Source of the DNA: a virus
Virus genome (UHGV): UHGV-0373331
Reading direction: 5' to 3' (one strand)
Length of the DNA: 36,618 nt
The notes beneath the pieces were generated by a model, which saw only the letters and a program-made list of their open reading frames with translations, ran no database searches and was not told the origin of the DNA. Both the position numbers and the translations under genes were made by a program. This document shows, piece by piece, positions 19,492 through 24,143 of the stretch. How positions within the stretch are numbered: position 1 is the stretch's first letter; every line of letters begins with the position of its first letter.

Positions 19492-19739
19492 CCTTTTACT
19501 GTTGCCATATCTTGCGGACTCATAAATGTACCAAAGAAATCTATTGGGTCTTGTAGTTTTTCTTTTTTAGGTTTATTATCTTTTGTAAACAGCTCCATTA
19601 GTAAATTATAGTCAGCGTTGTTAATTTCTGATAGAGACCATGTCCCAGACTCACTTGATAGAAGGTCAGTGTACATCTTATCCATTGCTTCAAGATGTTC
19701 TTCCCAACTTATTTCTGAGAGGTCTTTTTCACCTTTTTT
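19479..19739 (-). CDS. Tail assembly chaperone GT extension (-1 frame; expressed by programmed -1 frameshift at A_AAA_AAG)
   Basis: The -1 frame is open from the slippery heptamer through the ORF at 19479..19685. The heptamer is the reverse complement of 19733-19739. This gene order and frameshift are conserved in siphoviruses. Confidence 0.55.
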   Translation of the reverse strand, partial: KKGEKDLSEISWEEHLEAMDKMYTDLLSSESGTWSLSEINNADYNLLMELFTKDNKPKKEKLQDPIDFFGTFMSPQDMATVKGETL

Positions 19740-20038
19740 GATGGGGTTGCTTCTCCACCACCAATAGCATCAAATACGCCACCAAGTACTTCTTCTAGCT
19801 TATCTGCTTCAACCCCATTAATAATGGTGTCAAAGTTTACTTCTGGATTGTCAAATACCTCAGCTACTAACATAATCATTGTGTCAATTTGGTCTAAAGC
19901 TGACATTTCTTCCTCTCCAGATTGTACCTTTTCCATACGGGCTTGGAATTTCATCATTTCACGCATGGTCCGCACCTTGACTGATTTTTGTGTAAACTCT
20001 TTTGTTTTCCCGTCAATTTCTAATTTCAATTTAATCAT
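19709..20038 (-). CDS. Tail assembly chaperone G
   Basis: 109-aa ORF between the major tail protein and TMP, ending 30 nt after an AAAAAAG heptamer. Confidence 0.6.
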   Translation of the reverse strand: MIKLKLEIDGKTKEFTQKSVKVRTMREMMKFQARMEKVQSGEEEMSALDQIDTMIMLVAEVFDNPEVNFDTIINGVEADKLEEVLGGVFDAIGGGEATPSKKVKKTSQK

Positions 20039-21530: not shown

Positions 21531-21866
21531 TTAATCCTCCACTTGTTTACATACTAATGTAGTGAAGTCTCTATCAAATGAACCTTCCAGAATATCTTCT
21601 ATTCTGTATTGTTTACCTTTGAACTCAATACGATTAGACTTTGAAACCAGTTGTCCTGTATCGTATCTAATAATAAAGTTTGTTGTATTAGCTAGCGTTG
21701 TCCCATAGGTATCTTGATAGTCTTTAAAATACTGCTGTTTGACGGAACACCATATTTTTCTATCTGGATTCCATGTTTCAATCCACTCAAAGAACTCATT
21801 TCGTGAGCGCGTTTTCACTAGTAGTGTAATCCGCTGGTTCAGCTTGGATGTCTTGATATTCGCCAT
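21531..21866 (-). CDS. Head-tail adaptor / head closure protein (SPP1 gp16-like)
   Basis: Assigned from position and size (about 110 aa). Confidence 0.45.
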   Translation of the reverse strand: MANIKTSKLNQRITLLVKTRSRNEFFEWIETWNPDRKIWCSVKQQYFKDYQDTYGTTLANTTNFIIRYDTGQLVSKSNRIEFKGKQYRIEDILEGSFDRDFTTLVCKQVED

Positions 21867-22134
21867 GATTTAACCCCCTCAATTGATGAATCATTGCTGT
21901 GATAGTAAATGGTACTTGTTGTTGTAGTGCATTTGTAGCTGGAACACGATTTTCATACCATAAGGACACAAGCATGAAGATTAGTGTATTTGTTTTTGGG
22001 TCATCTGGTAATACTGTTACCTCAATACTACCTAAAATATAGAGTTGTGCTGCGCCAAGTAACATTTCTAAGTAGGTGTCATCCTCATCATAGTCAATAC
22101 GCAAATTGTTTTTGATTTCTTCTACTGTTAGCAT
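21796..22134 (-). CDS. gp6-like head-tail connector (DNA packaging) protein
   Basis: Start refined to ATG 22134, after AAAGGAGTG. The N-terminus LTVEEIKNNLRIDYDEDDTYLEMLLGAA matches the Phage_connect_1 family. Confidence 0.5.
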   Translation of the reverse strand: MLTVEEIKNNLRIDYDEDDTYLEMLLGAAQLYILGSIEVTVLPDDPKTNTLIFMLVSLWYENRVPATNALQQQVPFTITAMIHQLRGLNHGEYQDIQAEPADYTTSENALTK

Positions 22135-22164
22135 TGACTCTATCACTCCTTTATCATATAATAA

Positions 22165-22200
22165 AAGAGAGCTGAGACATGAGCCCCACCTCTCTTAGTG
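22165..22200 (-). terminator. Hairpin terminator after the capsid / Ig-extension coding region
   Basis: AAGAGAG...CTCTCTT stem with a T-rich tract on the minus strand. Confidence 0.4.
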
Positions 22201-22328
22201 TTATCAACCTGCTGGATTTGTTACTGTTACCGTTTTATCAGTAGCATTAGAAGGGGCTACAGTCGCTGTTAAAGCAACTGTGTTACCCACTTCTACGCTT
22301 GCTGTTTCAGGTGTTACAGTAACGCCTG

Positions 22329-23525
22329 TTACTTTACCTCTGGTGTAAGAGTTAAGAATTTACCCGCTGCTGCGTCTATTTTTTTAACGTCAAAACGCAT
22401 AGCTGCGGCTAGAATTTCTCCATAGTTTTGATGCTCTTGCCAACGAACTGCCATTTCGTTACGGTCAAAGAATGATGTAAATCCCGCTGGATCTCCCAAG
22501 AATGCTACTTTAGCGCCTGCTGAACCTCCTAGCAATTTATCAGAAAGTACTGTCACATTCAAACCAAGTAGTGATTTACCTGATTGAGCAGTGATTGAAG
22601 GTTGTAACATGTAACGTCCTTCATTGTCTTTCATTAAGTCTACTTCATTATAGAATGATTGAGAAACTACAAATTGTAAGTTATATGCTGGGTCAAACTC
22701 AGTATTGATGATTGCTTTGATTTCATCCAAATTCTTAACAGTTTTAGGTGTTGCTGTTTTCAAGTTTTCAACAATTTTAGAGTTTGCTGTGTTCAATGCA
22801 ATACGTTGAATATGACGTGCGATTAAAGCACCCAAATCTTCATCTGAATCATCTAAAGATTCACGAGAAACTGGAATTTGTCCACGATAAGTGTCAACAT
22901 CATACAATACATTTTCAAATTGTGGTTTGTCCAAATCAGGATTTGCTTCAAGTTCTTCAACAGTGTGCATTACAGCCTCTGTTGATTTCAAGATAGGGTA
23001 TTTACCAGTTGGAGTGCTTACTTTCACTGTTTGAACTAGGTTTCGTAAATCTACAACTGTTTCAGGCAATGTTTTTGTTTTTGTAACAATATCTTGAGGA
23101 ATAATAGCACCTACATCAGTTGATTTAACACCTTCTGGAAGCGCTCGCAAGTCCATTTTAGGGTTATGAGAACGTACATAATTTAAAAATCCACGAACTT
23201 CTGTTTCTGGCTGAGAGATTTCTTTTCCATCTAACACTACTTTTTCCATATTTTCTTCTTCTCCTTCTTGCTCTAATGAGCGTTGTTCTTCATCTTCTGG
23301 TTGTTCTTCTGGTTGTGTTTCTGTTTCTGGTTCTTTTGGTTCTTCTTTTTCTTCATCTTTTTTTTCTTCAACAATTTTATCTTCTTCAGGCTGTTCTTCA
23401 GAAGCTTTATTTTCTAACTCTTCTGCATCATGTTTCTTAATTGCGTCAACTAAACTACGTGCTTCCTCAAATTTGCCTTCTGACAATAAATCATGTGCTT
23501 TTTTGATTTGCTCTTCACGATTCAA
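22329..23525 (-). CDS. Major capsid protein (HK97 fold) with an N-terminal acidic scaffolding-like (delta) domain
   Basis: TTG start after GGAGTG. The N-terminal 110 aa are coiled-coil and E/P/Q-rich. It lies next to an HK97-type protease and portal. Confidence 0.75.
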   Translation of the reverse strand: MNREEQIKKAHDLLSEGKFEEARSLVDAIKKHDAEELENKASEEQPEEDKIVEEKKDEEKEEPKEPETETQPEEQPEDEEQRSLEQEGEEENMEKVVLDGKEISQPETEVRGFLNYVRSHNPKMDLRALPEGVKSTDVGAIIPQDIVTKTKTLPETVVDLRNLVQTVKVSTPTGKYPILKSTEAVMHTVEELEANPDLDKPQFENVLYDVDTYRGQIPVSRESLDDSDEDLGALIARHIQRIALNTANSKIVENLKTATPKTVKNLDEIKAIINTEFDPAYNLQFVVSQSFYNEVDLMKDNEGRYMLQPSITAQSGKSLLGLNVTVLSDKLLGGSAGAKVAFLGDPAGFTSFFDRNEMAVRWQEHQNYGEILAAAMRFDVKKIDAAAGKFLTLTPEVK

Positions 23526-23558: not shown

Positions 23559-23607
23559 ATTATAGCATACATATAAGAAGTTGTGGGCTTTAAATTACAA
23601 GCCCAAC
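23559..23607 (-). promoter_or_regulatory. Hairpin (23585-23607) plus extended -10 TGcTATAAT (reverse complement of 23559-23567) upstream of the capsid gene
   Basis: The reverse complement reads ATGTATGCTATAATTAAAAC. The stem is GTGGGCTT/AAGCCCAAC. Confidence 0.45.
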
Positions 23608-24143
23608 AGCTCCAATTCAACTTCTAAGCGTTGTTTCTCTAATTCATTAACAGCTTCTTCTAGTGAGCGTGTAGCAACTCGCACATCCGTGTCATCATAG
23701 GCTGGAATTGATACTAGAGAAATTTCTAATAATGAACCAATCTTGTTGATTGAACGTTTCATAATGTCTTTACCTTTTGTCCATTTATCTTTAGCTACTG
23801 TGAAGCCAAATGAGCACTGATTCAGGTCACCGCGTTTTACAAGTTCCATTGCGTCACGTCCATTACTTGTATCAGGAAGTACACAACGAAAACGTAAACC
23901 AATACCATCTACATTCAGTTCCAGTGTTCCGCTTGATGTGCGTCCTAATAACTTACTAGAGTCGTGATCCATGAAGCACCGTACATCTGTTAAGTCTACA
24001 CCGTCTAACGCTTCTGGTGAAATCGTCTCCACAAATCCACCTAAGTTACGTGATTCTTTATTGAATTTTAGTGCGTACCCTTCTACTACATTATCCTCTG
24101 TCTTCTCCAGTGTCTGTAGGGCTCTGATCTCCAACTTCTTCAT
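23595..24143 (-). CDS. Prohead protease (HK97 family, peptidase U35/S78)
   Basis: GYALKFN...FMDHDSSKLLGRT...GLRFRCVLPDTSNGRDAMELVKRGDLNQCSFGF is the HK97 protease signature region. Confidence 0.75.
   Translation of the reverse strand: MKKLEIRALQTLEKTEDNVVEGYALKFNKESRNLGGFVETISPEALDGVDLTDVRCFMDHDSSKLLGRTSSGTLELNVDGIGLRFRCVLPDTSNGRDAMELVKRGDLNQCSFGFTVAKDKWTKGKDIMKRSINKIGSLLEISLVSIPAYDDTDVRVATRSLEEAVNELEKQRLEVELELLGL

Follow-up and report, generated by a model that had tools for sequence, protein, structure and literature searches.

We have analysed an out-of-frame immunoglobulin-like (Ig-like) domain of the Big_2 family that lies behind the major capsid gene of UHGV-0373331, a stretch of 36,618 nt (hereafter the window) from an Enterococcus faecium siphophage of the IME-EFm1 / IME-EFm5 / vB_GEC_Ef_S_9 / Aramis / dArtagnan / KEN group. 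The domain sits in the -1 frame past the capsid stop, at a junction that is conserved among relatives, and in the window about half of it has been removed by an in-frame deletion of 141 nt. We infer, with a probability of about 0.7, that low-level -1 slippage of Lys-tRNA at an A_AAG_UAA site adds Big_2 to the capsid protein, giving a 90-amino-acid (aa) decoration in relatives and a deletion-crippled 42-aa stub here. The window copy is probably a recently crippled, function-less remnant of a dispensable decoration. Ig-like extensions added by frameshifting are already known; this phage group adds an unannotated case, which is present in the window as a deletion remnant.

A half-length Big_2 domain behind the capsid gene

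The -1 frame opens at 22359, right after a TAA at 22362..22360, and closes at a TGA at 22206..22204 that is followed by a TAA; its translation is ILNSYTRGKVTGVTVTPETASVEVGNTVALTATVAPSNATDKTVTVTNPAG. A first-pass annotation of the window, made by a model from the letters alone, had described this frame as overlapping about the last ten capsid codons and running into a TGA after some 42 residues, and both statements agree with the coordinates (Table 1). The extension that follows the Lys codon (22332..22207) is VTGVTVTPETASVEVGNTVALTATVAPSNATDKTVTVTNPAG, 42 aa and 4.02 kDa. The frame reads as that annotation wrote it, and its identification as the N-terminal half of a Big_2 domain is borne out by Pfam PF02368, which matches the -1 frame with an E-value of 1.4e-8 and 35.0 bits (gathering cut-off 22.8) over positions 2-39 of the 79 in the profile only. 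PHROG 215, 'structural protein with Ig domain', matches the same frame at E 1.2e-12. An open stretch of at least 51 codons is expected with a chance of 2.4% from base composition, and 3.7% of the stop-to-stop segments on the minus strand are as long; the length of this open reading frame (ORF) is uncommon but not rare by chance, and the weight rests on the domain match and on the relatives.

The space between the capsid gene and the following head-tail adaptor gene occurs in three forms across the phage group. In form A (IME-EFm1, LG62, DELF1, EhiS_268 and 8 of the 16 IMG/VR loci), the capsid protein ends in GE or GA and a terminator follows directly. In form B (Ef_S_9, KEN22, six IMG/VR contigs and four ENA contigs), the capsid protein ends in VK or AK, the junction is AAAGTAAC, and the -1 frame holds a complete Big_2 domain of 91-93 residues, GKVTGVTVTPETASVEVGNTVALTATVAPSNATDKTVTFKSADETLATVDNKGVVTGVKATEPDTPIVITVTTNDGNQTDTCAVTVTDPAGG, which covers profile positions 2-79 of 79 at E 7e-16. 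The alignment with relatives that had been suggested as a check on the half domain therefore turns up the full domain in the same frame. The Big_2 domain of lambda gpV (PDB 2L04; E 1e-5) and a Hoc-like protein (E 3.5e-4) are further matches of a full-length relative. Form C (IME-EFm5, Aramis, dArtagnan, EF36P3 and the locus L041) has a -1 extension of 22-26 codons, the terminator, and then a separate 58-aa fn3-like ORF with its own ribosome-binding site (RBS). The window is a form B locus that differs by the 141-nt gap, and about a third of the phage group carries an out-of-frame Big_2 domain behind the capsid gene. Counting the window, the Big_2 frame is intact in 11 of 13 independent copies, and the other two frames are full of stops; coding potential in this frame, the lack of which in homologous phages had been named as a result that would speak against the frameshift-generated decoration, is retained. 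Some 30 clusters (90% identity) hold intact C-terminal parts of the domain, all of them called from arbitrary internal starts.

The two copies with lesions are the window and the locus L015 (the same as L028; IMGVR_UViG_3300018471_000070). L015 has a 1-nt insertion of T (GCGTTAGAAG) about 45 nt past the shift site that breaks the Big_2 frame. With a further change of T to C in the other arm of the long hairpin (Table 1), this insertion makes the hairpin stem perfectly paired. The insertion could be a sequencing error or mark a second decaying copy. In form C, the -1 extension, which ends in VTTPGSVATQDVTATGVTITAV and a stop, follows GCG_GGG_GAG_TAA or GTA_AAG_TAA (IME-EFm5, dArtagnan, EF36P3 and Aramis; loci L004, L005, L006 and L010, in that order), and a 7-bp hairpin lies 9 nt past the capsid stop at these loci. 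The 58-aa fn3-like ORF of form C is mislabelled 'major tail protein' and matches the N-terminal half of PHROG 341; its copy in EF36P3 contains an N-run and a duplicated end.

Alignment of the window with Ef_S_9 and KEN22 leaves one gap of 141 columns, with flanks CGGTGACA and CGGTAACA, in sequence that is otherwise collinear with the relatives at about 95% identity. The microhomology at the deletion is CGGTNACA, 8 nt with one mismatch. The deletion fuses DKTVT to VTVTNPAG and takes away 47 of about 85 domain residues. Because the gap is single, clean, in frame and placed at a microhomology, the half-length domain is a deletion remnant. The first-pass annotation had left its cause open between a decaying remnant, a mini-domain and a sequencing error; the first of these is upheld, and a base-call error and a natural mini-domain are both rejected. 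The stop of the window frame comes one codon early (GGT TGA), which is ordinary variation, since relatives show GGG TGA too.

A complete domain spans about 79 profile positions and seven to eight strands, of which the window retains positions 2-39 and the last strand, VTVT, only. An AlphaFold2 model of the 44-aa remnant has a predicted local distance difference test score of 85 and two strands only, and short fragments can score high without a real fold. The 42-aa stub comprises only strands A to C and the last strand, and an Ig fold would not be expected of it. A foldable Ig-like extension is found in the relatives and is missing from the window owing to the deletion.

The proposed shift site and its conservation

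The capsid protein of the window ends in FLTLTPEVK, encoded at its close by GAG GTA AAG TAA, and the junction is GGUAAAGUAA. Read directly, this sequence places AAG next to the stop and AAA one base back, as the first-pass annotation had it, and AAG can re-pair as AAA in a site of the Z_ZZN type at 22335..22332. All 15 related junctions (12 independent loci of form B and three of form C, namely dArtagnan, L022 and L041) share AAAGTAA without change. The codon before AAG is variable (GTA or GCA), and the capsid tails read TPEVK, EPAVK or APAAK. From the shift site onwards runs a block without variation (Table 1), to be compared with 8 variable columns in the 30 upstream of it and 4-26 per 30 columns in other parts.

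The stretch from the upstream -1 stop to the first beta-strand contains neither ATG, GTG nor TTG, and the -1 ORF overlaps the capsid gene without an initiation signal of its own. In Ef_S_9, a TGA in the -1 frame lies four codons before the junction, which confines entry into the Big_2 frame to CCA GCG GTA AAG TAA. Of 35 variable columns, 19 fall at codon position 3 of the Big_2 frame (p 0.009). The ratio of nonsynonymous to synonymous substitution rates (dN/dS) in this frame is about 0.35-0.5, a modest signal; we relied on the third-position bias and the integrity of the frame, not on dN/dS. The frameshift in the capsid decoration that the first-pass annotation proposed is thus backed by the 15 junctions, by the lack of a conserved start and by the stop in Ef_S_9, whereas in the window, where more than half of the domain residues are gone, the extension could hardly serve as an Ig-like decoration.

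We propose the following course of events. The Big_2 module begins with AAA GTA ACx (K V T). In the capsid frame these letters become xxA AAG TAA, and the module thereby provides both the capsid stop and the A_AAG site. Most ribosomes would end at UAA. In a minority, peptidyl-tRNA-Lys on AAG, with the slowly decoded UAA-C in the A site, would slip back one base to AAA, and these ribosomes would go on with GUA ACA GGC. A P-site slip of this kind at the last sense codon would match the 'shifty stop' of Weiss et al. 1987 (cited in PMC5009743), and such a stop-assisted slip is the likeliest mode at the window site. In relatives the product would be the capsid protein with a 90-aa (8.9 kDa) Ig-like surface domain, as a minor decoration species; in the window it would be the capsid protein with 42 aa (4.0 kDa) unable to form an Ig fold. 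Peptides predicted from the Big_2 frame are the tryptic VTGVTVTPETASVEVGNTVALTATVAPSNATDK and, for a -1 slip at AAG, the Glu-C junction peptide VKVTGVTVTPE.

Several points weigh against this proposal. The site is a tetranucleotide without an X_XXY_YYZ heptamer, as G_GUA does not re-pair. No stimulator was found in a suitable place, either as a structure 5-9 nt downstream or as a Shine-Dalgarno (SD)-like sequence 10-14 nt upstream; a GAGG upstream is adjacent to the site and is not conserved among relatives. An alternative frame also gives a dN/dS of about 0.5, which makes the selection signal weak. Half of the relatives do without Big_2 and lesions occur in 2 of 13 copies, which points to loose constraint. 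The literature searched yielded neither proteomic nor reporter data on phages of this group. Finally, AAAGTAA belongs to the K-V-T linker of the module and is also found in frame between tandem Big_2 domains. Because the motif is intrinsic to this linker, its conservation need not mean selection for slippage and may be inherited, which agrees with a published account in which chance decides whether a mobile Ig module inserts in frame or out of frame, and any slippage at hand then serves for its expression (PMC5009743).

The adjacent stop codon is the sole remaining candidate for an enhancer. Since no classical stimulator was found, the efficiency of slippage is expected to be low, which would suit decoration on a minority of subunits. 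Loss of Big_2 should be tolerated because form A phages do without it, and the module is clearly dispensable, being absent from half of the relatives and deleted in the window. On the available sequences, the phage group appears to have the traits of the frameshift-appended Ig class apart from a stimulator: the upstream gene is one for a major capsid or major tail protein (here the capsid), and the re-pairing, the overlapping frame and the domain are as described above. The window copy lacks the complete domain.

Alternative explanations

The first alternative is that no recoding takes place and that Big_2 is an untranslated pseudogene fragment of a former independent decoration gene of the PHROG 341 type, with an N-terminal domain and Big_2, whose -1 phase is accidental. 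The space behind the capsid gene is a mosaic slot in which the 58-aa ORF of form C corresponds to the N-terminal half of PHROG 341 (positions 1-63) and the Big_2 domain of the window to its C-terminal half (positions 66-148); it resembles what would be left of a decoration gene with two domains. Standalone proteins with the N-terminal domain and Big_2 exist (P0053, P0058), and the lesions in the window and L015, the weak dN/dS signal and the lack of a classical stimulator would all fit a pseudogene. Against it stands a 92-codon frame that is intact in 11 of 13 copies and in the roughly 30 clusters while the other frames are ridden with stops, together with the bias of variable sites to the third codon position. 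The arrangement also recurs elsewhere. In another lineage (among the loci L017-L020, L025 and L026), a different capsid gene that ends GGA AAA AAC GCG TAG (the canonical heptamer A_AAA_AAC) is followed in the -1 frame by two Big_2 domains in tandem; in a Carnobacterium divergens prophage, Big_2 lies in the -1 frame after a capsid gene ending GTC CCA AAA GCG TAG (C_CCA_AAA); and in an Enterococcus hermanniensis-like contig, a gene for a putative major tail protein, ending GCG GGG GAG TAA, has a Big_2 behind it, likewise in the -1 frame. Four different upstream genes, all with a -1-frame Big_2 beside shift-prone motifs, are hardly an accident, and we regard an untranslated fragment as unlikely.

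The modules of the other lineages (ENA/Logan contigs L017-L020, and L025 and L026) are annotated merely as short Ig ORFs. No capsid-length in-frame fusion of capsid and Big_2 was found among close homologues, the matches being short ORF calls and standalone or tandem Ig proteins.

A different doubt concerns the window itself, in which the phage could truly carry the full-length domain and the 141-nt gap be an assembly artefact or an assembled minority variant. The junction is unique to the window: its 29-mer has no match in IMG/VR or in metagenome contigs, and no further deleted copy occurs among 16 capsid-anchored loci. An 8-nt repeat with one mismatch is nevertheless far too short for assembly collapse, the gap is single, clean and in frame within collinear sequence, and dispensable phage DNA is commonly lost by microhomology deletion. 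We therefore hold an artefact to be improbable.

Translation of Big_2 alone, from an internal start and as a free small Ig protein, is what the gene callers report (77 aa in the GenBank record of Ef_S_9, 56 aa in that of KEN22), and it is very improbable. The called starts vary by record, fall inside beta-strands of the domain and have no SD sequence before them; the annotated GTG lies inside strand B and is GTT in KEN22 and L016. The conserved first strand (VTGVTVTPETAS) lies upstream of all candidate starts, and in the window the ORF would be 28 aa, absent from a listing of ORFs of at least 30 aa. Compared with standalone decoration or Ig proteins (PHROG 341, Hoc-like), the window has no start, no SD sequence and none of the N-terminal domain of P0053, P0058 or PHROG 341 positions 1-63.

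Least probable of all is another recoding event, namely a +5 hop of Val-tRNA from GUA 22337..22335 to GUA 22332..22330 or transcriptional slippage: GUA AA GUA does offer matching take-off and landing codons that reach the same frame, and hops are documented (Weiss 1987, cited in PMC5009743), but L021, L022 and L024 have GCA as the take-off codon and still keep the arrangement, the codon in the A site when the hop begins would be an ordinary Lys codon and no stop, and polymerase slippage would need a longer run than three A.

Known systems, RNA structures and neighbouring features

Slippage of Lys-tRNA at the end of the capsid gene would place the phage group beside several known systems. Ig-like C-terminal extensions are produced by frameshifting in T3, A2, A118 and A500 (PMC5009743). 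In Lactobacillus phage A2, a -1 shift at the end of the capsid gene yields gp5A and gp5B, both of which are found in the head (Garcia et al. 2004, cited in PMC5009743 and PMC5221750). The proposal for the present group shares with A2 an HK97-type capsid, a shift site in the last codons and a minor longer product with a C-terminal Ig-like extension. A2 shifts at the heptamer C_CCA_AAA with a downstream stem-loop, and its gp5B is reported to be essential. Unlike in A2, the window site is A_AAG next to the stop, no stimulator is placed and the module is dispensable; a C_CCA_AAA junction like the A2 heptamer is present in the Carnobacterium prophage relative.

The 10A/10B proteins of T3 and T7 and the Cps proteins of Listeria phages A118 and A500 (-1) and PSA (+1) are similar in that a low-level shift near the capsid end gives a C-terminally extended second species (PMC5009743). 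The T3 extension is Ig-like; the T7 extension is not, PSA shifts in the +1 direction, and the capsid lineages and shift sites differ from those of the window. As to the site itself, A_AAG is the best-characterised minimal -1 site; Bacillus subtilis cdd (A_CGA_AAG) and IS1222 (G_CGA_AAG) use it, with re-pairing by Lys-tRNA alone (PMC5009743). The window site is like these in the re-pairing of AAG to AAA by Lys-tRNA only, in a 5' codon that ends in A without re-pairing and in an efficiency that would be low to moderate; it is unlike them in that AAG is the last sense codon and that their stimulators are not found here.

Fraser and colleagues reportedly described, in 2006, a class of Ig-like domains on phage structural proteins. 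The C-terminal Big_2 domain of lambda gpV and T4 Hoc resemble the module discussed here as accessory surface domains that are mobile among capsid and tail genes and often lie out of frame. The gpV and Hoc domains differ from it in being in frame or separate proteins, and the window copy is truncated.

If slippage occurs as proposed, an unannotated recoding event is present in a whole group of E. faecium phages, several of which are candidates for the therapy of infections with vancomycin-resistant strains. The module appears in databases as small 'Ig domain' ORFs with arbitrary starts, and correcting this annotation is of practical value. The natural variants (no module, intact, 141-nt deleted, and short extension with separate fn3-like ORF) form a ready allelic series, useful for studying the function of capsid Ig domains, e.g. 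adherence to mucus or cell-wall glycans, and the efficiency of a bare A_AAG-stop site in a Gram-positive host.

Three RNA structures are predicted around the junction (Table 1). None of 200 shuffles of the long hairpin region folds as well, and all relatives share the predicted hairpin. With a start about 27 nt downstream of AAAG, it is too distant for a classical -1 stimulator, and the 141-nt deletion starts 7 nt past it. The terminator-like element closes the unit of capsid and Big_2 and stands directly after the capsid stop in relatives without Big_2. The relatives are too similar for covariation in the hairpins. The parts that survive the deletion (22335..22239) are the shift site, the invariant block and the strong hairpin. 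It is conceivable, and in our estimate rather doubtful, that they have been retained for a role at the RNA level, as a non-classical signal, composed of the stop codon, the conserved sequence and the distant structure, that sets termination against slippage at the capsid stop, or by stabilising the capsid mRNA. If true, a Gram-positive phage would possess in A_AAG_UAA a natural programmed site of the 'shifty-stop' type that works without a stimulator and persists despite a useless protein product.

Table 1. Coordinates of the features in the window
Feature	Position	Strand	Details
-1 open stretch	22204..22359	-	51 codons; 10 capsid codons overlapped, then 42-aa extension, then TGA
Proposed shift site, A_AAG and UAA stop	22329..22335	-	A 22335, AAG 22334..22332, TAA 22331..22329
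Invariant block	22298..22335	-	38 nt from shift site; 0 variable columns in 10 relatives
Deletion junction	22228..22233	-	141 nt, 47 codons, in frame; lost ...VTFKSADETLATVDNKGVVTGVKATEPDTPIVITVTTNDGNQTDTCA...
Weak imperfect hairpin CAGGCGUUACUGUAACACCUG	22328..22308	-	-6.4 kcal/mol, z -1.9; abuts capsid stop, within invariant block
Long RNA hairpin in retained Big_2 part	22239..22304	-	126-nt region with minimum free energy -42.4 kcal/mol, z -4.8
Intrinsic terminator-like hairpin and U-tract	22161..22196	-	-21.4 kcal/mol, z -3.5; terminator scan 22188..22168
Major capsid protein gene	22329..23525	-	HK97 fold, 398 aa, E/K-rich N-terminal region
S78 prohead protease gene	23595..24143	-	precedes capsid in transcription order
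gp6-like head-tail adaptor gene	21796..22134	-	Pfam PF05135, E 1.6e-11

The window is about 89% identical in nucleotide sequence to vB_GEC_Ef_S_9 over 24 kb, and no tRNA genes were found in it. In the order of transcription on the minus strand, the structural genes in this part of it are those for portal, S78 prohead protease, capsid, gp6-like head-tail adaptor, further head-tail proteins, major tail protein and tape measure protein. The capsid ORF matches Pfam Phage_capsid (PF05065, E 2.4e-28) and PHROG 10 'major head protein' (E 2.3e-64), lies between the prohead protease and the adaptor, and shares 87-97% identity with E. faecium siphophage capsids.

For the adaptor, the ORF listing gives a GTG start at 22146; the ATG at 22134, which follows AAGGAG, is likelier from its spacing and from the homologous ATG annotated in relatives. 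A near-consensus sigma-70-like promoter (TTGACT, 17-nt spacer, TATAAT; 11 of 12 matches) lies on the plus strand at 22134..22162, opposite the structural genes. It overlaps the adaptor RBS and is oriented towards the Big_2 remnant and the capsid 3' end; in AT-rich DNA such a match may have arisen by chance.

A -1 frameshift of the tail assembly chaperone G/GT type is also present, with the canonical heptamer A_AAA_AAG (TCA AAA AAG) at 19739..19733 on the minus strand, near the end of a 109-aa ORF (19709..20038). The -1 frame, which includes KKGEKDLSEISWEEHLEAMDK, runs on to 19479, at the start of the tape measure gene. The G/GT frameshift was reportedly described by Xu and colleagues in 2004. 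It resembles the proposed capsid event in that Lys-tRNA slippage is already used in the expression of the window genome; it differs in that the chaperone shift joins two chaperone segments, is essential and adds no decoration domain.

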